This document shows positions 2,289 to 36,200 of a stretch of 64,000 bases of DNA, in pieces. Source of the stretch: Leucoraja ocellata. Lineage: Eukaryota. Location of the stretch: NCBI GenBank assembly GCA_036785375.1, contig JAWMAR010000136.1, positions 372,001 through 436,000 on the forward strand, read 5' to 3'. The notes below the pieces were generated by a model that was not told where the DNA came from, did no database searches, and was given only the letters and a program-made list of their open reading frames with translations. The position numbers were made by a program, and so were the translations under genes. Each line of letters opens with the position of its first letter. The stretch's first letter is position 1.

Positions 2289-5200
2289 CTGGAAGGAGAG
2301 ATAGATTTTAAGGTACTTGTAAAATTACACAAAAAGATACAACTGCCAGTTTAAAACTAATAGAATGATTTGGTCTATCAAATAATTCCTAAAGTGGAGC
2401 ACGTAACATATCATTTGATCTACTATGTTACACTCTTGTACTTGGTATGTTTGTGCTAATGAATAGCAGGATTTATCACTGAACTGTGTGCAAAAAGGAA
2501 TTTCATTGTAGTTACGTACACGTGACAATGAAGTGCCATTGAAACACAAGGTGCTGGAGAATTCTGACAAACAAAGTATTTAACTTACCAGTTTTAAAAT
2601 GTGCCATTATGTGCAGAATAAAAACAATAAACCTTCCTGCATTGTTGAGCCAAGTTGACTTGATGTACAGTATCCTTTTGTTAGCATCATAGTAAAATCC
2701 CTTGTTGTATGACCTATTTTGGCAGCAGGTAGCTTGTTCATTGGGAACACTGTCGGCCATGAGAAGGGTTAAAGGATTGTGGTTACAGCTACTGTAGAGT
2801 AGGTGGACGATAGAACACCCATATTGGTAGATCACAAAGTGGCGTGGGCTCAGGTTGCCCAGATCAGTTGGAATGAGTCGCTCATCATTCAATGAAACGA
2901 GATATGGTAGATTATCACCGCGATCTATAAAGAGAAACATAATGTTAAGTACCACGAGGCAATCAGGAGGTAAGAATGGATTCACGCAATGAATATGTCA
3001 AAGGTTTTGAAACTATGCTATCAATCCAGTAGTTGTGGTTAATTCTATGAGAAATGACTGTTGGATTCTATCTGTCAACTTCCTCTGTCCAAGTAACTTA
3101 AAGTTACGAGTTGGAGAGCTTTCAGTCAGAGGGGGAAATTGTGGAAGCCAGTTTCAGGCAGGAAAGGTTCCTCATCCCATTTATTTAGCGATTGGCTCTA
3201 TTCCACACAAAAGCAGGTAGCTTTGTTAAGAAATGTACTTGGAGCGAACAGGCAACCGAAAGTTTAAAAAATATACCAATCACAAACAAATATTACAATA
3301 AAGGTGAATACATACAGCCAGTATGAGACAAAATTAGTTGTCTCTGACCAATAATTGTACAATTAAACTAAGCTTATTTTAATTGAGATTTTATTTAATA
3401 CATACATGAGGCATTAATTCAATAGTAATTTCTCAATTTGTATTGGAGTGACGAGTTTGCCTAATATCGCACCCTACCTGCGTTGATGTCATGCTGAGGA
3501 TTTATTAATGTTTGTTTAATTTCTTCAAGTCTTTTCAGAAGAGGAGAGGATAGTAGGATCTCAGTTAGCTTCTCATTGTAAACAGAGATTGAAGCTGGCA
3601 TTGACACCACTTCTGCATAACCAAAACACATAGATATAATGACATGCATCATTTCTGATGTTTCTCTTACACATTTCTCAGAGCACATCCACATCATCAC
3701 ACTCTATAGTTAGTTGGCAATACACACGCAGATGCTATGATATGAAATCAACAGCACACAAGGTTGTCAGTTGGAATCTTCAGGACAGAAATTTGCCAAA
3801 CCAGCTAAAATGACCAGAAGGTGTTGTTGCCATTACGTCCCAATTGCTTGGCTAATGTTAATGAAGAAAGTGATTTGGAATTGCTGCCTTGTCTAGTACA
3901 CAGGCAAATCCAGTCCCACACAGTCAATGTTGGAAGGAACTGCACATGCAAGTTTATACCAAAGATAGACACAAAATGCTGGAGTAACTGAGTGGGTCAG
4001 GCAGCATCTCTGTAGAAAGGGAACAGGTGATGCTTTGGGTAGAGTCTGGGGACAGGTCTCAACCCGAAACATCACCTATTCCTTTTCTCCAGAGATGTGC
4101 TTGATCCGTTGAGTTACTCCAGCACTTTGAGTCTAAGTCACACAGTCATGCTTTCCTCAGAATGAATAAACAAGGAACTGCAGATACTGGTTTACACAAA
4201 AGGGCACAAAGTGCTGGAGTAATTCTGTCTGAAGAAGAGTCCTGGTCTGAAACATCATCATGATGTCCAGAGATATTGCTTGGCCCGCTGAGTTACTCCA
4301 GCACCTTGTGTAGTTTTAAGCTTTCATCAGGGTTGCTCTCACCCTCCTATTGCATCTTCTCTGGAGGTATGATCTTAACATGGATTATGCACAGGCCAGA
4401 GTTCCCACAGCACTCGAGATGAAATTCAAACTGTGCAGCCATGTGAATATTTCTAGCTTCTTGAACGACTCACCACAACCAGGAATGGCCACAACAAGGA
4501 TTAATTCTTGAGCAAAAGAAGAAGAAAAGTCCTGACCCTAGATGGCACCTGTTCATTTCTTTCCATGGATGATGCTTCACCCAATGAGACCCTCCAGTAG
4601 TTTATGTTTGCTCAAGAGTCCAGAATCTACAGTTTCTTATGTCTCTCAGTTGAACTCTTGACCTATTCTATTAACCAGGTCTGCCAGGAAGTCTGTGGGT
4701 GTGTTTTAGTTTCAGAACTTTGAGATGCGGAGGGATCTAGACATCCAATGGCATGAATTGCAAAATACCACAGCAAGTAATGAGGAAAGCTAACAGAACA
4801 CTGACAGTTATTGCCAAGGCAACTGAGTACAACAGTAGGAAGGTAAAGGAAAGACCCAAAGTGTTGGAGTAACTCAGCAGGTCAGGCAGCAACCCTGGAG
4901 AACATGGACAGGTGACGTTTTAGATCGGGACCCTGTGCCCCAAAAGGTGACGGTTAGGGTCCTGACCCGAAAAGTCACCTGTCCATGTTCTCTAGGGATG
5001 CTGCCTGACCAACTGTGTTACTCCAGCATTTTTTGTCTTTCATTGGTAAACCAGCAATTGTAGATCCTTGAATCTACATTTTGAATGCTTCAGTTAAGTA
5101 GGACACTCGTGAAACATGGAAAATCTGTGAACTTCAGAAGGTTGTGGCGGCCAAATTGCTAAAGATATTAAAGAATGACAGACAAATTTCTGGACATAAA

Positions 5201-8200: not shown

Positions 8201-11200
8201 AACGTGAGATCGCAATTTTTTTCCCTTTTCGCAATACTGGGCTTTTGAGCTGGCTGCTATTGGTACAACGGATATATTTGTTACCTTTCATTGTGTCCAG
8301 AGGTTCATTATTAGTGGTGGTTGTGGTTTCCAACTTGTCTACTGTTACCCATTTTCCTTCTATACTTGGGAATTCATAAGGGTTTAAACATTCTAACATA
8401 TCCTAAAGTAAAAAATAAACATTTTTTGGAAGATTTAGAATCTAAAATTCAATAGAATTCGCAACTATTCTTGAATGACATCAGAAAGCCTATCTTCACA
8501 CAAAGGGTAATGAAAAACCCATGTATCTTGAATTTCCTAGTGAAAATTCTATGAAATTGACAAGTATTTTTCTGGAAAAATATATCGAGGGATATGAAGT
8601 AAAAGGAACATGAATTATAAATCAAACACAACCTGGATGAAGTTGAGAAGTAAAACTAGATTAGAACCAAGTAGGTTGTCTTTCTACCCTGTAATTTGGT
8701 GGCAGTGAATGGGTAAAGAAGGATAGTTATGGTTGGGGATTGTCAAGGGAGGGGCAAGGAGCCTCGGGACATTTTGGTGTGGGACAGAGATATGGAGAGA
8801 TAAGTTGCCAAAATTGAACTTGAGACATCCGGGGTCAGGACATTATCAAAGTCAGTGAGGACATCAGAAGTGTCATGGATGGAAGTGAAGAGTTTGAGCA
8901 ATGAGAGAAGGCATAGGAAACAACTGGACTAAGACAGGGTTAAATAAATGATCCATTAGAGTTTGTTCTGCTTGTGGATCTGAGTGTGATGTAGAAGTGA
9001 GTTGTGAATGACCTGAAAACTGAATACGATAACAGGCGATGAATTATAAAAAGTACACGGATGATTTCACATCAGAGTTGAGTGGGATTGAATAGAACAG
9101 GTCTCCATTCTCTCAAGTCATTTTGGGCTCATAAAGATGGATGATGAGATGTTACCCTTGGATGGAGAATCTTGAACTAGGGGAACAAGCTTTAGATAAT
9201 GATAAGATTTGACGTTAAGATCAGGAGGAATTTCTTCATTTAGGGGCTAAGTCACGTCATGAAATTCTCTGATGTTCAAATCAATGAGCACATCAAACAA
9301 GACTGAGACTGATAACATTTGTAATCTGGGGAAATTAACAATTATGCAGAATTGTGATTAATCAGCGACCATCCTGTAGAAGGGTGGGTCAGGTTTGAGC
9401 AGCTGTATGCCTAATCCATCCCTTATATCATGATCTTACCTATCAACACTCAATGTTTCAGCATCAGCTATGATTTTTGAACTGTAATATAATGTAATAA
9501 CTGAATATGTATTATTACTGTGGAGGTTATCATGCAAGATTTTTGACCTTATTTTTAAAAGTCTATACTTTAAAAAAAATAAGCATTTTGAACCTTTAGC
9601 TCCTGCATCTGAAGGCTGATATGTCGATAAAATGCCTGCAGGTCACTCTTCTGTTTATTCAGCTGAGAAGCAAGGTGTAGGTTCTGGTCCTCCAGTTTAT
9701 CAAACAAGGTGCGGACACTAAAATCCTCCAGTTCAATCTCCTGTGCTCTTTTAGCTGTTAAAACATAAAACCTGCAAAATACCTGTTCTTGTACATTAAT
9801 AAACAGTTGACTATATAATGCAGTAATGTTTTCAATCTTTACAGGTGCTGAATTCTGATATTTGTTCCCTTCCCAAGTAAATTCACTACCCATAAAACAA
9901 AAATAATAATGGCATACAAAATGTACAATTCAGTACTGCCCTTAATGTCCTCCAGTTGCTCCAAACCTTCAGCCCGGCAGAATGCTGTAACTCTGGGACA
10001 TAGGTAAATATAGGGGTGAGTTTGGTCAAGAATTTAGAAACGTGATCTAATATTTGACTTTTTTTTTTAAATGTGAAAAGTGTACATGAAAGCAATAGGG
10101 TAAATCATGTGAATTATCATATAGCTGCTAAATTTGTATAAGATAATTATAAACAGTTGAATAAGGGGTGGGAATTAATAAGCTTTGGCTTCTTCCTGCT
10201 CCTTTTCGGACACATACAATTTCATATATTTATAGATATTGTTTATGACATTTTATAAATATTCTTGTTTTGTATTTTGTATGCTGTTACACTTGCTTTT
10301 TATTCTTTTATTCTGTTCGAAATAAAGAATTAATAAAAAAAGGAAAAAAAAAAAAAAAGCAGGACAACAGTTTGGCACTTCAATGATCAATTCACCTGAA
10401 TACAGCTGTGGTTTTCCTGATATCCCTTACACAGCGAATAAAATCTTAAGTTATCACTGTGTTTACTCCCTTCGCAGATTGGAGATGACAAATGTGATTT
10501 ATGATCCAGGATTACATTCTGAAACTTGGTTAAAGATGGCACTGTCGACAGTGGGAGAACTCAGGCCATTTTGGAACTGCATGGATGCAGAGAGACTTTA
10601 TCTGGAATCAGTTGGAGTTTTGTGATGGGATCATCTCCAATACCGAGCAGCGACAAACTCATGGCATTCAGTATGAAGAGCGTAATCTCCCAGTTCTGCA
10701 GAACCTTCTCTGAGAGCTTGGTGAGTGTCAGCCCTCTGGTCTTTTCATCTACGTTACTCCAGCACTTTGTGTTTTCTTTTGTAAACCAGCATCTGCAGTT
10801 CCTTGCTTCTGAAGATCTGAACCCAGTGGCGACGCTAAATCCTACGAATTTTTATTTTTGTAAAAATATTCTTACAAACAGAAGTACTGTAAAATAAATG
10901 AGCTGCTATATAAATAGGTGAATGATAGAAAATATGCCGATAATAGTCATAAGGCATCCTATTAATATAACAAGGCTGGAGAGTAGCTACTTTGTTTTTA
11001 CCTATTATGTGGGTTGACTCTTCTGTTTCTGATCCTTCTCCGGCACCTCGGGGTCCAAGAGCTTCATAGAAATCCAAGCTAAGAGAAAATATTGCATATT
11101 GTCACCGAACTGATTTAACGCACAAACCACAAGGAAATCTACAGTCCCACAGCTCCAGTTGCCTGAGTTTGATCCTGGCCTGTATGGCATTCTCCTTGTC

Positions 11201-14200
11201 AACGTCTATTGCCCCTGAGTGTTTCTGTTTCCCCCCACACCTCAAAAAATGTGTGGGCAGGTAGGTTAATTGGCCACTATAGATAGCACCTAGTGTTCAG
11301 ATGAGAGGTGGATTGTGGAAGAGTTAGAGTCATGGAGTTATACAGCATAGAAACAGGCCCTTTGGTTGAACTTGTCCATGCCAGCCAAGTTGTCTTCCTG
11401 AGTTGATCCCGTTTGCCTACATGCGGCCTATATCCTTCTGAGCCTTTATCATCCATGTACCTGTAAGAATGTCATTCAAACATTGTATTTCTTCCCATCT
11501 CTACAGCTTTCTCTAGCAACTGGTTTCATATACCCAATATCCTCTGTGTGATGTATTTGCCCCCAGGTCCCTTTTGAATCCTTGTGAATCTGTTCAGTAC
11601 CCTTTCTCAATTAATGGGACATCTTGGTTGCATTGGGCAAGATGGGCCAAAGGGCCTGATTCCATGCGGTGCGACTATAACTCTAGGAAACAGGCATTTG
11701 GTCTGATGGAAAGGCCCTGTCAATAGTTCCATCAATAGGCCACCTTTGGTAGTGAAACAAAGAGCATTTCTTAGATGGAGGAAGCACACTACAATAGCCA
11801 AGGTTATGCTGCATTAGGGAACCAACATACTGTACAACTGTGCCAACATTTACCAAAGGCATTCACAAACCAGGAAATGTTATGACATTACTTTGCTACT
11901 CAAAGGACTGAATATTTTAGCTGCCACAAAGAGCTTCCTAGATAAATATATTTCCTTAAGTGTCAAAGAAAATCATAGGACCACATCGTAAAACAAGGGA
12001 TGATCTTTGTGGATTTAACCTCATTATCGGAACTGTGTGGTGCTAGTTTTTGATTAGTAGAAGCTTTACTGATTCAGCTACCTCTTGCTTACCTATCTTT
12101 CATTATGACATATCCAGGTGGGATGTAAGGTTCCCCCAAACTGCGCCATTTTGGTTTCCACTTCTGCATGGGATTTAATGAAGACTGGTCAGGCTTCAAC
12201 ATCAGGGCTGCCACTGTGAACATTGCAGTCATCACAGCCAGGACACTAAGAGTTCCTGAAGCAAACACCAGGAAACATATATTAACATTCCTGTATCTCA
12301 ATTATATAAATCAACTATAAATATAAAGATTTAAGGACTGAAACGAAAAATGCAAGTTATCATAAAGCATTGATCAAACTCAATAATATGTATATGATGG
12401 TACACAAAAAAGCTGGAGAAACTCAGCGGGTGCAGCAGCATCTATGGAGCGAAGGAAATAGGCAACGTTTTGGGCCGAAACCCTTCTTCAGTCTGCACCC
12501 GCTGAGTTTCTCCAGCTTTTTTGTGTACCTTCGATTCTCCAGCATCTGCAGTTCCTTCTTAAACAATATGTATATGATTATTATATCATGTAAAAATATT
12601 GCATGCTAAATGAATATTCCATGTGCAACATCGTCTTTTTAAGGCATAAAGGTCATTTGTGAAAAATAGTTTAATATTAACAGTGGCACAGTTGTAGAGT
12701 TGCTGCCTTACAGCACCAGAGTCCCAGGTTTGATCCTGACTACGGGTGCTGCTTGTACGGAGTTTGTACATTCTCCCTGTGACCCGCGTGGGTTTTCTCC
12801 GAGATCTTTGGTTTTTCCCACACTCCAAAGACGTACAGATATTTAGGTTAATTGGCTTGGTGCATGTGCAAAATTTGTCCCAAGTGTGTGTAAGGTAGTG
12901 TTCTCTAGTTTTCATAAAACATAGGATTCATGTGTAAAAATTGAAATTCTTGCTTTCCAATAGAAACTACTGCAAGGGACTTTATCTAGGTTCCTTCCAG
13001 GTACAGTCGAGAGATTTGCATGCATGACAAGGATTTTTACACATCCTAGCAAACTGATCTCCTGTTGCTTGTTTGGTTGTGATATTTAACTCACTGCTGT
13101 GTCTAGCCTTTAAGGTCACGCACTCCCCATGGTGATCTACATAATTGCTACAGTTTGTAAATTTCTCAGGTTCACTCCAAGATTAATTGTGCTGGACTGA
13201 ATCCAGTCATTTACTAGCATGGTTCGTTATGTAGGTGAGCAATCAAGGGACTGATTGTACGTGTGTGAGAGATGCGTATTGAAATAAGTAAATATCAAGT
13301 AAATCTCAATTCTATCATTGGCGAGAAGGCTTTAAAGTTTCTTGCTTATAATTTAACTCCATTGCTGGACTGTTATCTCGATCACTGGAACTCATTCTCT
13401 CTCACCACTTATAGATGTGATTTTTGTTGCTGTAAGTAGGATTATAATTGTGGTGGAATGATCCGAGTAAATGTATCAACATGTTGGCTCATGGTGTTCT
13501 GGGGATTGTCAAGTCTTTTCAGAATGGCCACAATTTCTTAAATTAATAAAAATCCCGAATTGAGTTGAATGGGTGGTGAATCTGTGGAATACTTTGCCAC
13601 AGAAGGCTTTGGAGGCCATCAATGGGAATTTTTAAGTCAGAAATCGATAGATTCTTGTGTAGGAAGGGATTGCAGGTGATGATTTAAACCGAAGATAGAC
13701 ACCAAAAGCTGGAGTAACTCAGCGGGACAAGCAGCATCTCTGGACTCAGACAGCTTAAAGCAGGTTGTCTATGTTAAATCTTGACCTAGGGAACTGACTG
13801 GGGTTTCAGACTACATTTTGAAACTCTATCAGTTACCTCATATTTTATGGATTACTTCGAAGAGGAATTATTTTTTACATTACAAAATTAGAATAGGACA
13901 TAAAATGCTGGAGTAACTCAACAGGTCAGGCAGCATCGCTGAAGAACATGGATAGGTGGCATTTCCAGTCAGGGCTCTTCTTCAGACTCTCCTCGAATTA
14001 GGATTAGAATTCTGAAGAAGTTGAAAGGAGCTGAAACGTTGCCTATCCATGTTCTCTGGAAATATTGCCTGACCCGCTAAGTTACTGCAGCACCTTTTAT
14101 CCTTCTTTGTAAACCAGCACCGACAGTTCCTTGTCTCTACTCTAAAGCTAGAACAATGTTTACCTGTAATGAAGACCCAGTCTGGAGTCAGGTTGAGATT

Positions 14201-17200
14201 TTGTCGTTTTAGAATTCCATGTCTCAACAGTTGGAAGGGAGAGGATGGCTGGACAGATAAAGCAGCGTCACATTCTGCATTAAACCTGCTGACACTTACA
14301 ATCAGTGTGCGCTCAGCTTCTGCATTATCATGAAAGACGAACTTCCCAGGTTCCATGAAAGCATGTGCAAATCTAGTATAAAGGAAAATAGTGTTATTCC
14401 AGCTATATTTATGATAATGTTTCAGATGCAGGGGTCAGCCTTTCAGCCACTTCTGCCTGCACTCCCTGTCAGGCAGGGTATGACTGACACATTAACAGCT
14501 CTAATTACATGAACCAACCACAAGTTCTTAGATTCCATCAACATTTTTTTTACATTTCATATACATTACAACTGAGACTCCAGAGTCTTCATAGATAGAG
14601 AATTCCAACAATCCACTACCCCTCCTCCTCCCCTGTGAAAAAAATATTTTTGGATGGCCAAACACCTACATGGAGACTACGACTGGACATCCAGCAACCA
14701 GCCAAGTAAAACACCATTCTTGTGTCGATTCTGTTAAGCCCTATAAAAATTTTCAACGACATCTCATTGGCTCAATTCACCTTTATCGTAAAACCCATCT
14801 CAGCAATCAATCTGATGAAGCCACAGGACAGTCCCACTGTTGCAAGTGTACCCTTCCTTAGGAAGGGAGCCCCGACCTGCATACCATATTTCAAGTGCAA
14901 TCATACTGGGGCTTGATATAATGGTGGTAAAATATCTATGAAGTGCTACATTTTATTACACAAAGTCCAAGTGAGTTAGTGATGGTGTATGATGTCAAAT
15001 TTACTGCTGAGCAAATTCTCTGGCACTGTAAAAAATTACTGAAGTGACTTATAATTCCAATAAATATTTCAGAACAATGGATTTTAAAATAAAAATAACT
15101 TAAATTTATAATATCTTGGCTTCTAAGTTAATCTTGTACATTCCATTGTTAGTCAGTGTTCTATGAAATATGATTAGAACTCTGGTTTGCTGTTAACGAC
15201 AAAGTTGTAATGTGATTCTCAGTTAATTTAGCATGATGTCTTCATGGTTGCTGGATACCAAGAATTCTTTGAAAGAAATAATATTAAAGTGGTGCAGCGG
15301 TAGAGTTGCAGTGTCAGAGACGTGGGTTCGATCCCGACTACGGGTGCTGTCTGTATGGAGTATGTACATTCTCTCTGTAACTGCATGGGTTTTCTCCAAG
15401 ATCTTTGTTTTCTTCTCATACTCCAATGATTCAAAGGTTTGTAGGTTAATTGGCTTGGGTTTGTATACTTCGTATAAGTGTAAATTGTCCTTAGTATGTG
15501 CCGGTTAGCGTTAATATGTTGGGATCACTGGTCAGCGTGGACTCGGTGGACCAAAGGGCCTGTTTCCGTGCTGTATCTATACAACTAAACTAAAAAAAGG
15601 GGAGACCATGCGGGAGAGATTGGAGTGGGAATAAGAGAAACAAGGGGAGAGAGAGTGGATGGTTTGAGTGATAGTGAAGAGTGGGTGTGAGTGATAGTGA
15701 GAAAGCGGAAGGCTAAGGATGAGAGTGATGTGAGTGAAAGCACAAATGTGCACCCATGCCAGAGAATGCATTTGAATGTCCGTTAGTTTTAGAAGATAAT
15801 TATCATAACCAGGATACTCCCTGCTGTGGCATCAGGTCTATAATTGTGCTACTTCACCAGAGTTTAGAGCTTAAAAATAGTCAGAATGGAAACTATTTTC
15901 TGACAGGCAGTAAATAAAACACTTTATTGTACAATTATCAATCAAGGCCAAACACACAAGGTTACAGATATGGAATATGGTCACCTGGTGATGTTGACAT
16001 TAGTTTCCCTGATAAAATAATCCAACTTCCTGAAGGATCCAAAATCCCACTCTGAATTTGTGTTGAACAGGTGGTCTTTTTGGTAAACAGGGTAGTGACC
16101 CAAACTTCGATCTGACAAAGAGAATTAAAGAAAGACTGCTTATTATGAAAGATATGGCCAGTCCAAAGTAATTAACTGAATGTAAATAGGACCTCAATAT
16201 CATATCAATGAAAAGCCAAAGTATGTCTCTATTTGTTGTTTGCTCTGGTCCGCCAACCTGCACTTCAACCAGGAATACATAATGTGTGTGCTGCTAGGAG
16301 ACCTATTCATGCAATATTGTTGCATATTTTATATTTCTTTAAAATCTTCTTACAATATAGATCGCTCATTTGGTCCATTGAGTCTATGCCACTTTCAGAA
16401 CATTCTAATCAATTCCCCATCTATTTTCTGTGACCCTGTTCTCTCCCAATGCCGGTCAATACTCTCTCCCTCACCAATTTATCTGCCACTCTCCTATGTA
16501 AACGGGCAAACTCCCATAGCCAATTAATCGACCAGCACATCTTCGAAGTGTAGGTGGAAACACATCCAGTCATTTGGGGAACATGCAAACTGCACATTGA
16601 CTGATAGTGCTCAAGGTCAGGATTGAACCTGGCTTGCTGCATCCCTGGAGAAACTACCCATGTACTCCAGAGATGCTGCCTGATCTGCTCAGTTACTCCA
16701 ACACTTTGTGTCCTTTTGTGTATTAACGAACATGTGCAGTTCCTTGTTTCAACATCGATACTCACTGCTTTGGTGGATGTTGAGCTTGAAGAGGATCAAG
16801 TCATTTGGTTTTAGGCAGACAATGGGGTTTGGAATTTTGTGAACTCCTCCGTGCAAGTGGGTGAGAGCGGTCCTTTGCACGTGTCCTCGTGTTTTTGGCC
16901 GATGCCGTAGATGTCCAACTATTTCAGGCTGCTCCATCTCTGCACAGGTAAAGATGAAAGACAATATTTAAGAATGGATTGTAATCGCACTGATGAAATA
17001 CACTTAAAGGATTATTTGTTGATCAAATTAGGTTTTAAACTAGGCTTTGAATACATAACAAATAAACAACGTTCAGGCTGCCTTCAACACTTACTAATGA
17101 GGTACTGAGGTACACCAGGGCTGCCAACTCTCACGCTTTGAGCATGACACTCACGCATTTCAGCCAATTCTCACGCCCTCACGCTGAAGACAGAATTCTC

Positions 17201-18161
17201 ACGCTGACAGGCTGTCTTCAGTCCCTGCACAGCAAAGATCCTATAGCGGAGCGGAGCTATAGGATCTTTGCTGCACAGTTTGTCTCTTTGCGCCACATGA
17301 CAGCGATCTACACGGATTGGGGAAGCGCGTCGGTCCCGGGCAGCGGGTGTCAGCGCTTTTTTGCGCCACCTGCGAACGCTGCTCTTCCAGCTGCCACGGC
17401 AACCTCGCTCCCTCCCTCCCTCCCTCCTGCCCTTCAACTCACACGGCAGCGCCAGCGCTGCCAATCCACGCTACACCGTGCCCGCCAGACTCCCCATTGG
17501 GCAGCTGGGGAAAGAGAGGGAGGGGAGAAAGAGAGAGAGAGAGAAAGAAAAAAAGGAAGGGATGGAGGCAAAGAGAGACTGGGGGAGAGAATGTGGTAAA
17601 GGATTGAAGGAAGGGAAGGAGAAAGGGGAGAAAGAGGAAGCGTGAGGAAAGAGGGAGGGGGAGGAAAGAGGGAGCGAGGGGGAGGATGGAGGGGGGAAGG
17701 AAAGGTGTGTGTGTGNNNNNNNNNNNNNNNNNNNNNNNNNNNNNNNNNNNNNNNNNNNNNNNNNNNNNNNNNNNNNNNNNNNNNNNNNNNNNNNNNNNNN
17801 NNNNNNNNNNNNNNNNNNNNNNNNNNNNNNNNNNNNNNNNNNNNNNNNNNNNNNNNNNNNNNNNNNNNNNNNNNNNNNNNNNNNNNNNCTCCCCGTGTGT
17901 GTTTGTCCGTCTCCCTGTGTGTCTGTCTCCCTGTGTGTGTGTGTGTGTGTATCTGTCTCCCTGTGTATGTGTGCCTCCNNNNNNNNNNNNNNNNNNNNNN
18001 NNNNNNNNNNNNNNNNNNNNNNNNNNNNNNNNNNNNNNNNNNNNNNNNNNNNNNNNNNNNNNNNNNNNNNNNNNNNNNNNNNNNNNNNNNNNNNNNNNNN
18101 NNNNNNNNNNNNNNNNNNNNNNNNNNNNNNNNNNNNNNNNNNNNGTGTGTGTATCTGTCTC

Positions 18162-18213
<52 letters not shown>

Positions 18214-21200
18214 TTCCTTTGTGCATGTGTCTCCCTGTGCATCTGTTGTCACATCCTGGCCTTAGACAGGGCTGCCAACTCTCATGGCTTGAGCGTGAGA
18301 GTCACGCATTTCTGCCATTTCTCACGCTGACAGAATTCTCACGCTGTCTTCAGTCCCTGCACAGTTTGTCTTTTTGCGCCATATCACAACGATCTGTGCG
18401 GTCTGGGGAAGCGCGTCAGTTGGCGGCTGTGAGTGACGTCGCATCTCTTCTCTTCTCTTCTTTCTTGGTTGGATGTGCAGCCGCTGACAACATGAAGCAG
18501 CCGGAGATAAAACTAACCAGGTGGATCGGTTGTAAAACATGGGGAGGACCACAATGAGGCCAAACATCTAGGACAGGGTTCGGCAACCTACTGCACACGG
18601 GCTGAATCCGGCCCGTAACCCAAAAAACCACGTTTGTTTTCAATTCGTTTTCGCAGGGTCGGGGCAGGCGAGCCGACCTGAGAACTGCAGCCAGTCCCTG
18701 GGACGCGAGCTGATCTGGGAACGGCAGCCAGTCCCTGGGCACGCAGAATGCCAACTTGATCATTATGGACAAAATGGGCCAGCCACGTACATGTTGTATA
18801 ACTCTGACTATGAAGATCTGAATGGGCTTAGAATGACCATTTAAGCAAAATTGCCCCCACTTTCCACATTTTAATTCTTGAGATTTACATCCCTTTGCTC
18901 TGTTAACAGCGTTAAAGTACTTATGAGGAAAGGGAACATGTTATTTTTTTTTTTTTAAGTTTGCTTTAATTTGTTAGTTGATTGTTTGTTGAGTGCCATC
19001 ATTTCTGAAATGGTCTTAAAGTAACTTAACTGTTATAAAGCAGTAATAAGTGATTTTTGTCCTTACAATTGGAACTTGCATAAAATGGTTGCATTATTAG
19101 CAGGACTACCAACTCACACGCATTGAGCGTGAGACTCACGCATTTCACAAAATTCTCATGCTCTCACGCTGATCACAAAATTTCTCACGCTCAAATATCT
19201 GCGGGTGCTGAAAGTTCAAAATAAAGCAAAAATTGTTTTAGAGGCGAGTAAAAACCATGAGGGGAATATCAGGTGAATGCATAGTCTTTTTCCCAGGATA
19301 TGTGATTCAAGCACTAGAGGGGATTGGTTTAAAGCAGGGCTATCAGCACCAACCTCCCTCCCCCTTGCCCCCTAAGGCACGGCACACACCTCCCACCCTC
19401 ACCTCCGGCGGCTCTATGTCTGTCGACTGCTCTGTCCATACCCCATGGAGTTTTAACCCCGGCCCGGAGCCAGGAGCGGACCGGGTGAGTGCCGCCTCCG
19501 GAGCCTACTATGGGAGGGGGAACACTCCCCCCCCACACCCCCCCCCCCCCCCCTCGGTCGCTACGCTCCCTTGCAATTTCTCACTCTCAACTCTCACCCA
19601 ATGTTGGCAGCCCTGGGTACACATCAAATGCACACTTGTTAATTCATACCCAGAAGTCTGTTCTTAGAGTGGCAAGGCTGGCTAAAAGGTAAAACACTGT
19701 ACATCAGTAGGGCCTTGTGTGCAGAACTGTAGAACAGGCTCTTGCCTAAATCAGCTATAAAAACCAGAAAAGCCACACGCCCAGTTGTCCAGTTACCAGG
19801 GATGATGTCTTGAATGCTTCTCCAAGTCACTCACATGCTGGAACATTCAAATATGATTAAAGATCATAAAGTACAACAAATTTATGGTCCATTGTAAGAA
19901 GATAAGCAGAACCAAAAAAATGATCAGTGGAACTTTGTAGTAAACTTGAGACTTCTGGAATTGTGCAGAACTTCTCACATTTCGCAGCAAGCTGTCACCC
20001 ACTAATAGGCAGGCTGTTAACATTAAATCAAATCTTTTTTGCATTGCAGAATAAACCAAAATAATCCTAATTTTAGCCATAATTGGACCATTCATTTAAA
20101 TTAAATTAAATGCAAACCTGTCTGACAGGGAGATTGCAATAAAGCAAAGGATTATCATGCAGTTAATGCACCAGACCAGCTTCACCCAATGTTGTCTGAT
20201 TATATTTAATAAGGTTCTCCAATGTTTAATTCATCAAACTGGACAATTGAAAGCTTTAAGAAAGGTCATAATTCATTATTGGCTGGAATGATACATTACA
20301 ATGTAATCTCCCATGAGTTGCATTGAACTGAGTGCAAGCTTATGAATAATGATCATTACAGTAGATATGACAAAGGCATTTAGGTGGCTTTTGGATCTGC
20401 AAGTGGATATAGATGGAATGCAGAGAGATGGGTCATGTGCAGGCAGAAGAGAGTAGTTCAGCATAGACATTGTGGGATAAAGTCTGTTTCTGGGCTGCAC
20501 TGTTTTATGTTCTATATCAGCTTTCTCCTCTTTGGCTATTTTCCTGGGTCTGATTCTTTTGCTCAGGTTCTCGAAATAACGTGACCAATCATGACAGTAA
20601 CCCTTTTATTTCACTATAGACTGATCAGATGAGTTGTTCTGATGGGAAAACATTTTGTCCTTGAGTCATTTCACTTGAAAACCCAGCTTCTCCTCTGTAC
20701 TAGTGGTGTCTTTCATTTATTTTAAAAACACATTTTCTTTACTCAAAGCCTAAGTGATTATGAAGATAATTAAAATGTATTAATAGATCAATTGGGATTG
20801 CTCAATGTTGGAGAGATAACATGTAAAATCCAATGGACAACTACCTTCACCTAGTGTTTATGGCCTGTAACTGCAGACACCTAATACACAGACATCTGGT
20901 GATAGAACTATTTGCACAAACGGTTTCATTGTAATAATATTGACAGAGTTATCATGGTCATAGGGAGTACATTTTATGAATATATATATCCACATTTTAA
21001 TGTAACTGTAGCAGCGTACTCTGGTGCTTGAAAAGATGCTTAAAAAGATCTGTAAAACAAGTGAATTACTTAAATTGTGCAAAGATGTTTCATTTTGTCA
21101 GGCAGTGACATTTAAAAGATTTCCCCGTTACACTATAGACAAACTGTAATAGTTGGTTTGGAATAATTGTTACGAAATTCTTGCTGAAGCCACAGTAAGT

Positions 21201-24200
21201 TATTTTTGTATGTTCTCTGTATCTCTGATGCATTCAACCATTATCAGTCACATTCCAGTCAGTTACTGACCTGCGAGGAACTCCTCAACTGCATTCTTTC
21301 CTGACAAAATCCAACCAAAAATTCCAGCAGGCTCAAAGTGGATGAACTGGACTCTCACATTGTCTTCAAGTTTACTGTGTTCATCTGGCCCAAGCACATC
21401 CGCCACAACCTGAGAACATAAAACACATCAAGAACGCTTGCCAAGGCAAAAAGTCACTAGATTAAATGTGTACCATTTTTAGTTTAATCTCTCTTTTTAT
21501 TTTAACTTTCGTTAACCAGGAAATCTGCAGTTGATTAAATTATCATGTTCATTCACTTGACTGCTCAGTAGAAATCTATTTCTAGTCGGGTGCAATAATC
21601 GCAAAATGCACCCTGGAAAGAAAGATCTAATCTCCTGTCAAATATTACTAGATAATTGCTATTACCTTCTGGGATCCTGTCTGGTACCCATGTACAATTC
21701 TATAAAAATAGAGCAATAACTCAGAAGGCACCAGTTAGTTTATACATGCTTTGTAAAGATGAAGTCTTACTAACGGCAGAGTGCAAGGGCCTGGAAGAAT
21801 TGATGCTAGAGGGAGCAGTAAGATGATATTTTTATTGTCTCACCCACTCTTTCTGGTCCTTGGCCATTCCATTTTGAACGGTTAAAACAAGTTTTCCATT
21901 TGTTTGGGTACCTGCAGAAATATTCAGCGTTCTAGCCACACAAACTCTGTCACAGAGCTCCTCAGCAGAGATGTAATTATTACAATGACATCTGGAAGGT
22001 AAGAGAAAGATTGTGCATTAAAATTTCAGATGGAATATAAATCCATGACTTAAGCTTTGACAACAAAAAGTACATAAATTAATAGTACTGTGTTCAGTTT
22101 TCTTTTCTTTACTTTACCTCCTTTCTTCGAAAAGTATGCAAGAACGTAATGGATGAGATCTTATGACAGCTAAATACTCTCCTGTGCTTTATCCAAAGTT
22201 CATGCTCAAAGCTCCACCTTTGATCAGAAAGGTGATTGGATGGTTTGTCTACCTCAAACTGATTTTCCCCATTCTGCAGTGCAACACAACCAGAACCAAA
22301 CACAGTTCAATTATTTCCATGGCAAAGATCAGCCAACTTAAGGTTCTTGACCTGAAACATCACCCGTTTAATCCATCTATAAATGATGCCTGATCACCTC
22401 CAGCACTTTTTGGTTTGCAGTCTAAATAGCTGTTTCATTCACTGAATAATTGGAGTCACTGATGTCTCTTTTAGTCACCATTGCAATAATCCATCCAGAA
22501 CTATTGTACTGTCTTCAGATGCTTTAAATTATTCTATGATCATTACTCTCATAACACTTACCATTCCACCAAAGGGAACAAATGGCTTGTCAGTTGTTCA
22601 TTCTAAACATGAGAATGAATGCGTTTTGTTAGCCAAAGGTACTTGGGAACGGGGCAAATGCAAGTCTTTGTAGTTAAGATGTAAAAACCAGGATTCTCAT
22701 TGAACAATTCAGAGAGCTGTGGTTCTTTCTAAATACATAAGTAATAACCATATAACAATTACAGCACGGAAACAGGCCATCTTGGCCCCACAAGTCCGTG
22801 CCGAACATTTATTTCCCCCTAGTTCCATCTACCTACACTCAGACCATAACCCTCCATTCTTTTCCCACCCAAATACCTATCCAATTTATTTTTAAATGAT
22901 AAAATCAAACCTACCTCCACCACTTCCACTGGAAGCTCATTCCACACAGCTACCACCCTCATGTTACCCCTAAACATCTGTCCCTTAATTCTGAAGTCAT
23001 ATCCTCTTGTTTGAATCTTCCCTCCTCTCAATGGGAAAAACTTATCCACGTCAACTCTGTCTATCCCTCTCATCATTTTAAAGACCTCTATCAAGTCCCC
23101 CCTTAACCTTCTGCGCTCCAAAGAATAAAGACCTACCTTATTCAACCTTTCTCTGTAACTTAGTTGCTGAAACCCAGGCAACATTCTAATAAACATCCTC
23201 TGAACTCTCTCTATTTTGTTGACATCCTTCCTATAATTGGACGACCAAAATTGTACACCATGCTCCAGAATTGGTCTCACCAATGCCTTGTACAATTATA
23301 ACATTACAACCCAACTTCTATACTCAATGCTCTGATTTATAAAGGCTAGCACATCAAAAGCTTTCTTTACCACCCTATCTACATGAGATTCCACCATCAG
23401 GGAACTATTCACAGTTATTCCTAGATCCCTCTGTTCAACTGCATTCCTCAATTCGCTACCATTTACCATGTACGTCCTATTTTGAGTTGTCCTGCCAAGA
23501 TGTAGCACCTCACACTTATCAGCATTAAACGCCATCTGCCATCTTTCAGCCCATTCTTCCAAATGGCCTAAATCTCTCTGTAGACTTTGGAAATCTACTT
23601 AATTATCCACAACACCACGTATCTTAGTATCGTCTGCATACTTATTAATCCAATTTACCACACCATCATTCAGAGCATTGATGTACATGACAAACAACAG
23701 TGGACCCTACACAGATCCCTGAGGCACCCCACTAGTCACCGGCCTCCAGCCTGACAAACAACCATCCACCATTACTCTCTGGCATCTCCCATTCAGCCAC
23801 TGTTGAATCCATCTTGCTACTCCTGCATTAATACCTAACAATTGAACCTTCTTAACCAACCTTCCATAAGGAAACTTGTCAGAGGCCTTACTAAAGTCCA
23901 TATAGGCAACATCCACTGCTTTACCCTCATGAATTTCCCTAGTGACCGCTTCAAAAAATTCAAGAAGATTAGTCAAATATGACCTTCCAGGCACAAATCC
24001 ATTTTGACTGTTCCTAATCAGACCCTGTTTATCCAGATGCTTATATATATTATCTCTAGGTATCCTTTCCATTAATTTGGCCACCACTGGTCAAACTAAC
24101 AGGTCTAGGTTTACTCTTAGACCCCTTTTTAAACAATGGAACAGCATGCCCCCCATCCTCTGGCACTATTCCCGTTTCTAATGACATTTGAAATATTTCT

Positions 24201-27200
24201 GTCATAGCCCCTGCTATTTCTACACTAACTTCCCTCAATGTCCTAGGGAATATCCTGTCAGGACCTGGAGACTTATCCACTTTTATATTTTTCAAAAGTG
24301 TCAGTACTTCTTTTTCTTTGAATCTCATAGTTTCAATAGCTACTCTACGTGTTTCCCTTACCTTACAGAATTCAATATCCTTCTCCTTGGTGAATACCGA
24401 AGAAAATAAATTGTTCAATATCTCCCCCGTCTCTTTTGGCTCTGCAGATAGCTGTCCACTCTGTCTCTCTAATGGACCAATTTTATCCCTCGTTATCCTT
24501 TTGCTATTAATATCATTGTAGAAACCCTTTGGATTTACTTTCACCTTACTTGCCAAAGCAGCCTCATATCTTATTTTAGCTTTTCTAATTTCTTTCTTAA
24601 GATTATTTTTACATTCTTTATACTCCTCAAGCACCTCATTTACTCCATGCTGCTTATAATTATTGTAGATCTCTCTTTTTCTGAACCAAGTGTCCAATTT
24701 CCCTTGAAAACCATGGCTCTTTCCAATTTTTACTATTTCCTTTCAACTGAACAGGGACATAATTAAGTATGAAAGGCAAAAAACCCTCCATTGCGGTCAC
24801 GCCTGTTTTAAAGTGGTGTGGTAGGTGCTTTGTGCAGAAGGCAGAATAGAGAATCTTGAAATAAATGCCATTCATTTTACATGATTCACTTGGGAATTAG
24901 ACAGAGGTTTATATTTAGCACGAACATGGGTCTAATTAATGAACCAGTCAAGCTCCTGCAGCTATCCTGCATATATTCAGGTCAGGCAGCATTTGTGGGG
25001 AAAACCTTAACATGCAGAGCAAGGATGAAAGGGTGGAGGATGAAACAGAAGGTCTGATCTAAGGCAGAAGGGATTGAATGACAAATGTAATGTTAATGAA
25101 AAGAGAAGGAGAGCAATAGAGGGACAGGACATCTGAGGAAATGTAGATAAGAGAAGCAGAATTATTATTGGAAATGAAAAAGGGGTTATCAGACATTTAT
25201 AATTGAATTGTTAATGCTGATTATCAGACATTGTTAATTTCAATTACTGACTTTGGAAAGTTGTGGAGTGCTGAATGAGAAGATGTGTTGCTGTGAACGT
25301 ACTTCAAGCTGCAGTGGAATAGAGTCAGAGGCCAGGCAGAGAGAAGCCAGGATTACAGGCGGAATTAAAGTGACAGGTGATTGGAACATTGGAGTCTTGA
25401 CAAACAAATTGAATGGTCAATGAATGATAATTATAAAGTAACCCAATGAGTATCAGTTGCAAGAAATTTCTTTCTGAAGAGCTGTAACTAACATTCCCAG
25501 TTCTACATCCAGCTTTCCCCCAGGTTCGCCACAAGCTGGAGTGCAGTTATGGTGCTCAGGGAGAACACATCTTCTCGATGATGCCAATCGTGCCTCATTG
25601 GTGCCACAGCGATCATCCACCTGTGGAGAGACAGTGTACAATGCAGGTCACAAACAGAAAAGAAAAACAACGTGCAGAACCACAAAAAAATGAAAGAGAA
25701 CCAAGACAAGGAAATGGTCGATCATCTCCACTCAAACATTAATTCCTTGTAGCATCTGCCTCGATCAGCATTTATATCAACAGATTTGCTGTTGCTCTCA
25801 TTTCAATAGGCTCAGGAATGAATGATACACTGTATAAGAAAGTACAAATCTGAGAATAAGTAACTCCAAACCTATGTAAAAGTATAATGATACCATATTT
25901 TGTTTAAGTAGTTGGTTTATGGATTTTTGAGTCTCTAGTTTTGCCCTTGTTATTCCAGACCATTTTTTCCTTTTCAGTGAACCTTACAACAGCATTAAAA
26001 ACATGTATCAGATACTTCAATGAACTGGAAAATATTTTTGGATATAGACACAAAATGCTCGAGTAACTCAGCGGGTCAGGCAGCATCTCTGGAGAAAAGG
26101 AAATCCGGGTCAAGACCATTCTTCAGATTGAGAGTCAGGGGAGAGGGAAACTAGACGTATGGAAAGGTACAAAACAAATCAGAGCTGGCAACGATGGGTA
26201 AGGAGCCCACTATGGTCCATTGTTGGCTGTGGAGGAGGTGATAATGAAGGATCTGAATTGTGAAATTAGTCTGAAGAAGGGTCTCAACCTGAAACGTCAC
26301 CCATTCCTTCGCTCCATAGATGCTGCCTCACCTGCTGAGTTTCTCCAGCATTTTTGTCTACCTTTGATTGGTCCAGCATCGGCAGTTCCTTCTTAAACAG
26401 TGAAATTAGCAGGTTGACTAGGTGGGGGAGAGATGGAGAAAGAGGGAATGGAAGGGTTACTTGAAATTGGATAAATCAATATGTATACCGCTGGGTTGTA
26501 AGCTGTCCAAGCGGAATATGAGGTGCTGTTCCTCCAAGTGAAAGCGGGGAACTAAATCAGTAGATGATGTGAGACTTTAAATTTTAGCTCTTGATCTGAT
26601 GGCTACATTTGCAATACTGAGCATAACTGGCTGACTCAAAATTTAAATCGTATATCTTCAACAATAAAATTATCAGGACTTGTTGGTATCGTCCCTAAGA
26701 ACTTCCTCTTACCTCAGGGTGACAGTCCATGTCACTGTTGCTATCTGAGTTTTTCTGATCTGCCTCATTGTAGTAAACATAGCCAGTCTTACAAATACAT
26801 GACCCATCTGATTCCTGAAAAGCCCGATTCAAACCATGGCACGTGCATGTTGTGGAGCCTGAATGATGCAAGGATTGTTAAAGAGTGACATGAATATTGC
26901 CAACGTTCCAAAAGGCTTTCACAGCATCTGTACGTTTGTCTTTATTACCACCAAACTTATTGTCACAAGTTTCAGCACTATTTCTCCAAAGCATTGTGTT
27001 GGTCTTATAAAGAAAACAATGAAATAAACCCGGATTCCTTACAGGTGGCAACGTCACCAAGGACACCATGTCCACCAGCCAGATCTAAATATACTGAGTA
27101 ACTTTTTAATTTGTAAAAATGTACTTTAATTTTTATTAATTACTTCATTGCTTCCTTCTTAGTCAACAGCAGTCGCTGATACAGGTTGGAGTGCAAGTTA

Positions 27201-33200: not shown

Positions 33201-36200
33201 ACCCAAAGAAATGTCCATTTGAATATCATTTATCAGAAATATCATTTTTTTAAGATGCCAGCCTTCAGTAACTGGATTTCTAGTTAATTTAATTTAAAAG
33301 TATTGCTTTTGGTCTAAGCTAGAAATACCTGCGTTGTTGCAGAAGTATCCTGGAGGGCAGGTCTGGCAAGCTGCCCGACTGGCTGCTCCACTGACATTGG
33401 AATAGGAGTGGACTGGGCACTTCTGGGGCCCACCAGGAAAATGATGCAAGGCCTGGATCTCTCCATCACAGAAATATCCACCAGGACAGCGATAAAGAAC
33501 GGGATCGCCTGAGTGCAGAGCATACATTTACTGTAACACTCTACAGAAGAGACTTGAAACATTGTGTTTAAGAAGGAACTGCAGATGCTGGAAATCTAAG
33601 GAAGACAAAAATGCTGGAGAAACTCAACGGGTGAGGCAGCATCTATGGAGCGAAGGAAATAGGCAACGTTTTGGGCCGAAACCCTTCTTCGGACTTGAAA
33701 CATTTACTGGCAAATCATCAACTAATGTTAGTAAAGCAAATTGTCATGTTTGCAGGTGCTATTTTAATTCCAAATTCAGTTCTTGAAGAATAGAAGGCAA
33801 AATATTTTTACCGCATGTTGCTTTCTAGTAAGTTAAGGTAAATCCCAAAAATCTATTTTGAGTGTTAACTTGTTTGATACCATGAGCAAACCACAAAGTG
33901 CTGGAGGAACTCCACGGCCAGGCATCATCTGTGGAGGGAATGGACAGATGAGGTTTTGGGTCAGGATCCTTTTTCAGTCTAAAGAATCGTCCCAACCCAA
34001 AATATCTGTCCATTCCCTCCAAAGATACTGCATGGCCCAGTGAGTTCCTCCAACACTTTGTGTTTTGCTCAAAGCTCCAGCATCTACAGTTTTTGTGTTA
34101 CGTATTTCGTACCTTCTTTGCACCAGTATCCAGGTGGGCATGGCTGGCAGTCCTCTTGCTGTCTGGCACCAGTCAGTAATCTAATTGTATTCGAAGGGCA
34201 GGGTTTGGTTACCTTCGTCCCCTCAGGACAATAGAAACCTGAAGGATTCCAGGGAGATTACATTCACTTTGGAATGGAAACAACTCACAAATAATTAATT
34301 TAACAAGAATTTTTCTTCAAAACTACTTTGTGTTTCTCCCATTTCCTGGTTGTAACTTTACGAGAACATCTGTAAAAATAGCAGGAAATCATTCCAAAGC
34401 TATCTATGGATTTTGCGGTTCTTCCATTAAATTTATTATTTATTAAACTTTATTTCGGACTCAAGGTCCAGACAAGGGGCAACATTACATAAAATGCATT
34501 GCATATTAAAAAATATCATGAAGTGCATATCATTAAAGCTACATTGGATGACCAAGAGAGAACTTAATTTTTCAGTTATTTTTAAAATAGAATGCACAAT
34601 TCACGTTGATAAACAACATGGATTGTTGGAATGTTTAAGTCATAGCTTTGGTCATTTAAGTGTAGTGTTTCCCCCATGATGCCAAAATGAATGGATAAGA
34701 ATTGCTGATGTTATTGTATGATATATTTTGTTAAAAAATAGCTGATTTGACCAATTATCAATCACTTATTCTGGCATCATGCTCCCACGTTCTTTCATTA
34801 ATTTCTCTGCTGAGGGAATTGGTGAGAATGTGAGGAGAATAAAAAATAGAATTAATATAGAAACGCAAATAGATTGTTGATGACTGGCGTAAATGTGGTG
34901 GGTTTTAGGCTCTATTTCTGTGCTGTAATTTTCTATGACTCTCTGATTTCTACTGAACATTATAATACTTTTCTAAATGGTTCATTCTCAGTGAATGTCA
35001 CCTTAATCATTCCTGACAGCAAACATCCTCTGGCTCCACACTACAACAACATTTCTAAGGTGGACTGTAACAATTTAATAGTTGTGTCTGGACAGGAACC
35101 AAGCTGCTTAATAATATATCTCGCATTGACAATATCAAGTTACAGATGTCTTAAAAGTCTGATATTGATTCATAGAATCATAGAACACTTTATGAGAGTA
35201 TAAAATAATTCTAAATGGCTCTGGAATTGATTTCACTTTGTCTTATTAAGTCAAACTTTATTCCAGTATACTAATCTGACAGCTAGAAGCCAACAGAGAC
35301 AATACCCTAGCAGTAAACTCACTTCTATGAAGTTTGTCATCATCTTTGCCTGTGTACCCAGACAACAGTAGGTCTGGCCCTCTCTCATTCTCCAGTTGAT
35401 ATATTTTCAGCAGACCCATTAGAATATGATACCTTATTGTCAATTTACATAATACTTAGAAGGAAGCCATTTAATCAATACCAGCTCACAGAGGAAACCC
35501 ATTCTCATGCTCCACTGAAAATGGATGAGAAACATTATGGAGTAATGGGCCTGGAATTGAGCCAAAGGGCCATTATTTATACAAATGAAACAGACAATGG
35601 ACATTTGAGATTCCCAGATCTTCCTCATTAAGCGACATTAACTTTCAATTTGCACGGTATTGAGCAAACAATATTTCCCAAGGACTTTTCACGAAGAACG
35701 TGTGAAATGTAGCACAGTCTAGTAACAGAATAGGTAGCAATCGGAAGGAAGAATACCCAGAAGCATGGACAAATTAAACCCATTTGCTTTAAGCATCTAG
35801 CCACAACACACACTGCATGGAGGCAATGATTACATTTGTAAATAAAATCAAATGTTGTTTGATATTATACCTGCAGGACACGGTCCAGCACACACCTGGC
35901 CCCAGATACATGGATTATTGTTAGTTGCGGCATTAGGGAGAACTCCATGAGGGGTAAAATTATAACTGCCAGCAAGACAGAAGTATCCAGCCGCGCACAG
36001 TCCTTGAATTCTTCCTTCACTGCAGAGACATACATTTTGAATTTCTACATGTGCACGTGAAAAATGATTACAATATTCATTTTTTGAAGCAAAAACATTT
36101 CTAAAGGTTATGATAATTTGTGAATATAATAATAGGATAAATAATGAGCAATAATCTATGTCCAAATAATAACCTTCGCACATCTCTGTTAAAGGTCTGC

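Follow-up and report, generated by a model that had tools for sequence, protein, structure and literature searches.

A short inverted-repeat insert in the skate Leucoraja ocellata as a possible excision scar of a P-element-type transposon

What kind of event leaves 38 bp of inverted-repeat DNA between two copies of an 8-bp target site? The question is raised by a locus in a 64-kb stretch of the Leucoraja ocellata genome (contig JAWMAR010000136.1, positions 372,001 to 436,000), which we call the window and within which all positions are numbered unless stated otherwise. A first-pass annotation had read the locus as a footprint left in the germline of a cartilaginous fish by a P/THAP9-like transposase. 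Here, we describe the insert, its relatives in the window and in other sequence collections, and the routes by which it could have arisen. Transposon remnants are a known kind of sequence, and the family described below is a further member of that kind, which may already be catalogued in Repbase or Dfam.

Structure and reality of the insert

The insert at this locus (site 1) is 38 bp long (17233-17270) and stands between exact 8-bp direct repeats of CTGCACAG, at 17225-17232 on the left and at 17271-17278 on the right. Its left terminal inverted repeat (TIR) arm (17233-17247, plus strand, 15 bp) matches the right arm (17256-17270, minus strand, 15 bp) perfectly, and the arms enclose an 8-nt centre, GGAGCGGA (17248-17255), which would be a repair junction if the insert is a scar; the duplications and the centre carry no strand. 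The centre and its neighbouring letters (insert positions 13-25) form a period-5 run, in which a 5-nt unit is repeated 2.6 times. Where the first-pass annotation had described a 38-bp palindrome with an 8-bp target-site duplication, the duplication holds, but the palindrome reduces to the 15-bp perfect arms around the centre, and the two 17-mers that had been taken as mirrored ends agree at 15 of 17 positions. Its observation that a paralogous segment near 18357 keeps a single 8-mer is borne out. One CTGCACAG (18357-18364, no strand) stands in a sister left end of the element that hosts the insert, and this sister segment (18267 onward), 1.1 kb away, aligns across site 1 with a gap of 46 bp. 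Thus, the insert and one copy of the 8-mer were added, and site 1 is an insertion with an 8-bp target duplication, a remnant of a DNA transposon.

Site 1 lies in low-complexity DNA, 450 bp from an assembly gap, a position in favor of a hairpin arisen by chance, of local duplication, or of an artefact of assembly next to the N gaps. A scan of the window for exact 8-bp direct repeats flanking an insert with 12-bp inverted ends (≤1 mismatch) returned two cases, both from the same family (site 1 and a second copy, site 2). The same scan of 40 Markov-resampled windows gave 2 cases at 20-3000 bp and none at ≤60 bp, so that 0/40 null windows produce a structure this short. Moreover, the second copy has a different duplication and is present in independent contigs of two organisms, and a third copy occurs in an unrelated contig. 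Chance and artefact are refuted for the family by the null windows, the unrelated contig, and the contigs of relatives at site 2 (rather than by reads at site 1), and as an account of the insert they are very improbable.

As single-stranded DNA, the site 1 stretch folds with a z score of -7.9, and none of 200 shuffles folds as well. A structured RNA was considered and rejected, as the 12 Rfam matches all fall far under their gathering scores and are mostly generic miRNA hairpins. The insert termini read CAAAG, which is compatible with a CANRG pattern; hAT termini are also compatible with these letters, and CANRG as a consensus for P termini was not found in print among the matches listed.

Genomic surroundings

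The insert is located 117 bp into a different TIR element (17116-19615, no strand), which is non-coding, has 13-bp perfect ends, spans two N gaps, and is flanked by an exact 7-bp, not 8-bp, duplication (17109-17115 and 19616-19622). This host element is composite, with three left-end-like copies (17116, 18267, and 19101) that share one right end. It contains many short CTCACGC-type subterminal repeats, and the three of its open reading frames (ORFs) that were tested gave no Pfam match.

Judging from the exon-like ORFs that lie on the minus strand on both sides, site 1 is probably intronic, and no effect on a host gene is indicated. The exon at 9594-9773 shares 96% identity with a protein of Amblyraja radiata, 84% with Pristis, and 80% with Narcine, values that place the window in a skate or a close relative and bear out the cartilaginous fish named in the first-pass annotation. 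A large gene with many exons and cysteine-rich ephrin-receptor-like repeats occupies the minus strand from about 2500 to 61200; its relatives are named only "uncharacterized" (e.g., si:ch211-286b4.4). Other features of the window are a broken LINE reverse-transcriptase fragment (RVT_1; 22744-24742, minus strand), which we take to be CR1-like, and a 63-bp imperfect palindrome adjoining an exon (45716-45778). Additionally, five self-inverted stretches of 140-200 bp (3966-4135, 4846-5044, 12396-12532, 33883-34071, and 59700-59884) are built from an abundant repeat, pieces of which are joined head to head or tail to tail.

A family of short forms

The second family member (site 2; 43942-43985, no strand) is a 28-bp insert (43950-43977) between 8-bp duplications of GTATGGAG. 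It has the same arms, which overlap at a central GC and contain one mismatch. Exact 8-bp target duplications are thus present at both window sites, with a sequence that differs between them. Two members of the family, 26.7 kb apart, occur in one window; either the family is far more abundant than depth suggests, or the element hopped locally, as is known for P (PMC7776569). Beyond these two sites, a search of the 64-kb window at ≤3 mismatches found one further match to an arm (35020), with no partner arm.

A 33-bp member occupies positions 2962-2994 of a metagenome contig (L001), the sole match in the metagenome contigs to a scan with the first 20 nt of the insert. The first 20 nt of one end are identical between the site 1 insert and the L001 copy, and the 33-bp form is one letter away from the window insert minus one 5-nt unit. 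The duplication around the L001 copy is imperfect, with 7 matching letters out of 8 and a shift of 3 nt, and it is situated within a short tandem array. The contig has a CpG ratio of 0.93 versus 0.35 for the window, and it contains an exon-like ORF resembling an immunoglobulin domain. A search with this exon protein returned one relative at 78% and no vertebrate match, a result that is weak as evidence of lineage. Taken together, the CpG ratio and an immunoglobulin-like exon without vertebrate match suggest that L001 is probably invertebrate. Its 33-bp member could reflect either deep conservation or horizontal transfer of the parent element.

The three forms share one design, namely 13 nt, the unit GCGGA present 0, 1, or 2 times, and 15 nt, for total lengths of 28, 33, and 38 bp. 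Removal of one or two 5-nt units from the site 1 insert gives the 33- and 28-bp forms with one mismatch each. The first-pass annotation had expected insert lengths of about 28-40 bp with variable centres; three lengths at three loci agree with this expectation, but they differ by whole 5-nt units. This regularity favors an alternative in which the family is a mobile micro-MITE. A transposase would move a 33-bp master (15-bp TIRs and a 3-bp spacer), and slippage by one 5-nt unit would have shortened it to 28 bp or lengthened it to 38 bp. Each site would then need no more than a single insertion. Against such a master, both copies in the window have lengths other than 33 bp, and we know of no mobile element so short. 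The human MADE1 MITE, for example, is about 80 bp long. So short an element could not be brought into a paired complex and cleaved, and no duplex would remain after a 17-nt stagger.

Comparison with relatives and contig depth

Contigs from 4 of the 24 sequencing runs listed (organisms A to D) were aligned to window positions 42400-44880, which include site 2. Organisms A (0.2% different) and B (1.4% different) cover the 28-bp insert with no gap inside it. In organism C (3.2% different), a 1.3-kb stretch (42818-44158) is absent, and one contig joins both sides. In organism D (4.1% different), one contig crosses site 2 with 10 letters against 43 in the window, where an empty site predicts 7. Site 2 in organism D is an empty orthologue. 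Since the 28-bp form is present in A and B and the site is empty in D, the insertion at site 2 and its shortening would both postdate the split from D and predate the separation of A and B, unless the site is polymorphic. A long allele at site 2 was absent among the rows listed for the four runs, and no RNA runs were among the sequencing runs listed for this stretch. The stretch 42400-44880 also holds SINE and MITE pieces. A MITE-like element of 254 bp (43101-43354) has inverted ends of 42 bp, and its contig depth is very high in each of the four runs.

Summed contig depth over the insert amounts to about 320-740 single-copy equivalents in 4/4 runs, a value that is inflated by overlapping contigs and is not a copy number. 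This high depth indicates a dispersed family in all four organisms. In one contig of organism D, an addition of 5 letters produces a 33-bp variant that accounts for 17% of the depth (about 117-127 single-copy equivalents), and this addition is the only gap at the insert among the rows listed. The unmutated 33-bp form does not appear among the gap rows listed for the four runs at a threshold of 5%. A single identical centre had been named by the first-pass annotation as a sign against scars, and it appears in part, in the form of this one variant.

The depth results bear on the micro-MITE from both sides. The high summed depth in all four runs (with the same limit on its reading as a copy number) and the single 33-bp variant in organism D are in its favor, but the unmutated master is absent from the gap rows listed, and the D variant may be carried within a larger repeat that was amplified. 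Its high depth would follow from a mobile micro-element and from passive amplification alike. MITEs are defined by high copy number and by homogeneous size and sequence (PMC3698922); here, the summed depth is high, yet the two window copies differ in size. On balance, we consider a mobile micro-MITE improbable.

Search for a parent element

The first-pass annotation had proposed a search for longer elements with the same TIRs, and none was found in the 64-kb window or in the viral, metagenome, and prokaryote collections. DNA-pattern searches for the parent gave 0 matches in each of two scans of viral contigs, 1 match in the metagenome contigs (the short form in L001, with no longer element), and 0 and 3 matches in prokaryote genomes. 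The last three (L002 to L004) were rejected as family members, as they have arms of 13-14 bp, unrelated centres, and no flanking duplication seen; they are chance or operator/terminator palindromes. Pfam comparison of 12 selected ORFs from the 50 listed for the window revealed no transposase, with one RVT_1 and one weak Ephrin_rec_like match.

Previous description was sought as well. The 15-nt arm sequence is absent from the papers searched, and nothing was found on the family of sites 1 and 2 or on P footprints in cartilaginous fish in a literature search whose scope left out subscription papers and bioRxiv supplements. The supplements of PMC12361510 contain no P entry in 12 files, one scanned file aside. 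In Repbase, a non-autonomous element is classified when 11 nt of its terminus match a known family (PMC4455052).

Origin of the short forms

We favor the reading that the site 1 insert is the excision scar of a P-element-type cut-and-paste transposon, with a probability of about one half. An element with these 15-bp ends entered another transposon, in its left end, and produced the 8-bp duplication. The same transposase would then have excised the element by cuts with a long stagger, so that about 17 nt of each end stayed behind on the chromosome as 3' tails that could not pair fully with each other, and the break would have been closed by germline end-joining. Pairing at a GC/AGC microhomology would yield the 28-bp form, and if the 5-nt tip was copied by templated synthesis once or twice, the 33- and 38-bp forms would result. 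The resulting scar would be inert. Inserts of 28-38 bp are too short for the binding and pairing of two transposase ends. Excision of the hAT type takes out the whole element, and hAT scars are built of flanking sequence, not of element ends.

The 17-nt stagger invoked by the first-pass annotation agrees with the Drosophila literature. The P transposase cleaves one of the strands at 17 bp within the element (PMC7776569), and after excision the donor has non-complementary 3' tails of 17 nt (PMC2895639). According to Table 1 of the latter paper, 14 of 68 junctions are 14+2+14 = 30 bp and 5 are 32 bp, with both 8-bp duplications kept, and 20 of 68 are near-precise losses. Junctions with templated insertions include one of 16+4+17 = 37 bp between both 8-bp duplications, and the inserted letters are imperfect repeats of 5-8 nt with adjacent templates (PMC2895639). 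The 5-nt unit of the skate inserts resembles these repeats, and the skate forms share the overall design of the Drosophila junctions.

The 28-, 33-, and 38-bp forms consist of element ends only, and all of them can be parsed with ≤17 nt on each side, whether the ends are symmetric or asymmetric, given assumed letters at positions 16-20 of the parent. If the 17-nt tails are drawn from the insert, a join at 2-3 nt of microhomology gives the 28-bp form. The 33-bp form can be read as 17+17 with a 1-nt overlap or as 17+1+15, and the 38-bp form as 17+4+17 or as 17+6+15. The 17+4+17 split given in the first-pass annotation is a possible parse, but it is one among several and not an observation, as 17+6+15 with symmetric ends fits too. 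It needs asymmetric ends, and it is circular, because its right 17-mer comes from the insert itself; the 17+17 parse is circular in the same way, its right end being derived from site 1. With symmetric ends, the 28-bp form is one of the enumerated microhomology joins for 17-nt tails and has the second smallest flaps among the 8 listed. A symmetric end of 20 nt yields both the 28- and the 33-bp form as 2-nt microhomology joins, and consequently the stagger is unreadable from three copies.

Several results count against a P scar. Joins of 30 and 22 bp are predicted for symmetric tails and are absent among the three forms seen. Organisms A and B carry the same 28-bp form, which places both insertion and shortening on one short branch, and a single event is simpler. 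Furthermore, the 33-bp design recurs (in L001 and in one contig of organism D), and symmetric 17-nt tails need the same one-base filler each time. The larger flanking deletions made by the zebrafish P transposase in cells (PMC10983969), a TIR length and duplication size that suit hAT equally well, and the lack of a parent or transposase in the window and the collections searched also speak against it.

The recurrence of the 33-bp form is explained by the microhomology joins of a symmetric 20-nt end, and these joins support another alternative, in which the inserts are internal-deletion remnants of an element from any superfamily with 8-bp duplications (hAT, P, Zisupton, or MuDR). Such remnants require no long staggered cut. 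They would form when gap repair aborts after an excision, or when replication slips between short direct repeats across the TIR fold-back, as in the "nearly precise excision" of Tn10, whose remnant is a short palindrome of two element ends within intact target duplications. The Tn10 remnant is bacterial, 50 bp long, flanked by a 9-bp duplication, fixed in one form, and independent of transposase. The skate junctions lie at GC/AGC microhomology, in keeping with a deletion. Miniaturisation by microhomology is documented for MITEs, although the documented products are 213-549 bp long and use microhomologies of 6-8 bp (PMC3814204). The 10-25-bp TIRs and 8-bp duplications of hAT elements (PMC3942097) are both found in the skate inserts. 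On the other hand, all three forms stop within 13-20 nt of each end, and longer remnants would be expected too, an expectation set against a small sample. We regard a deletion remnant as a serious possibility but, overall, a rather unlikely one.

Returning to the excision scar, P superfamily members (P, 1360, Galileo, and Pdre/THAP9) have duplications of 7 or 8 bp (PMC3698922), and both window sites fall within this range. Any internal transposase-binding sites and subterminal repeats of the parent would be lost from the remnant. What stands of the first-pass reading is the insertion, the 8-bp duplication, a dispersed family, and sizes like those of Drosophila junctions; the P/THAP9-like enzyme does not stand in the same way, as no parent was found and the features fit hAT too. 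The insert behaves like a P donor-site scar, and its membership of the P superfamily is putative.

Comparison with known systems

The closest counterparts in structure that we compared are the P{wa} junctions of Drosophila melanogaster (Chan, Yu & McVey 2010, PMC2895639). Like the skate forms, they keep both 8-bp duplications and retain 13-17 nt of each end with a 2-3-nt microhomology or a short templated filler, for about 30-37 bp in all. They differ in being laboratory events of a known element with 31-bp TIRs, whereas the skate arms match over 15 bp only and the parent and its enzyme are unseen. Unlike these junctions, the skate forms are fixed in natural genomes, where a single 33-bp variant reaches high depth.

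Among fish, the nearest published relative is zebrafish Pdre2, a recently mobile P family with 13-bp TIRs and 8-bp duplications (PMC10983969), and its existence lends support to the P reading. Pdre2/zfTHAP9, a fish element of the P superfamily, resembles the skate family in its short TIRs, 8-bp duplications, deleted copies, and a TIR that starts with CA (PMC10983969, PMC7776569), but the TIR sequence is otherwise unrelated to the skate arms (PMC10983969). In cells, the zebrafish P transposase produced larger flanking deletions and not neat scars (PMC10983969, section 6). The excerpts of PMC10983969 and PMC7776569 report neither scars made of TIRs only nor a cleavage position.

Non-autonomous hAT elements and MITEs (PMC3942097) share with the skate family the 8-bp duplications, the TIR length class, and the occurrence of deletion derivatives. 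The BuT2 derivatives of that group measure 532-927 bp, unlike the 28-38 bp of the skate forms.

Implications

If the inserts are ordinary deletion remnants, their interest is limited to repeat annotation and to their use as a presence/absence marker among skates. If the micro-MITE alternative holds, the family would be exceptionally small for a mobile element, a result no less surprising than an excision scar. The invertebrate-like copy in L001 raises possible transfer between phyla. In its widest form, the P reading would make the skate inserts a fossil record of hundreds or more germline P-type excisions with a long stagger, in which the cleavage position and the repair spectrum of a vertebrate would be legible without biochemistry, with the same family present in an invertebrate through horizontal transfer across phyla; we put this combined claim forward tentatively and hold it to be unlikely.

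If the P reading itself is true, the 17-nt staggered cut described for the Drosophila enzyme also worked in a vertebrate germline. In that case, genome-wide scar lengths would directly reveal the stagger and the outcomes of end-joining.
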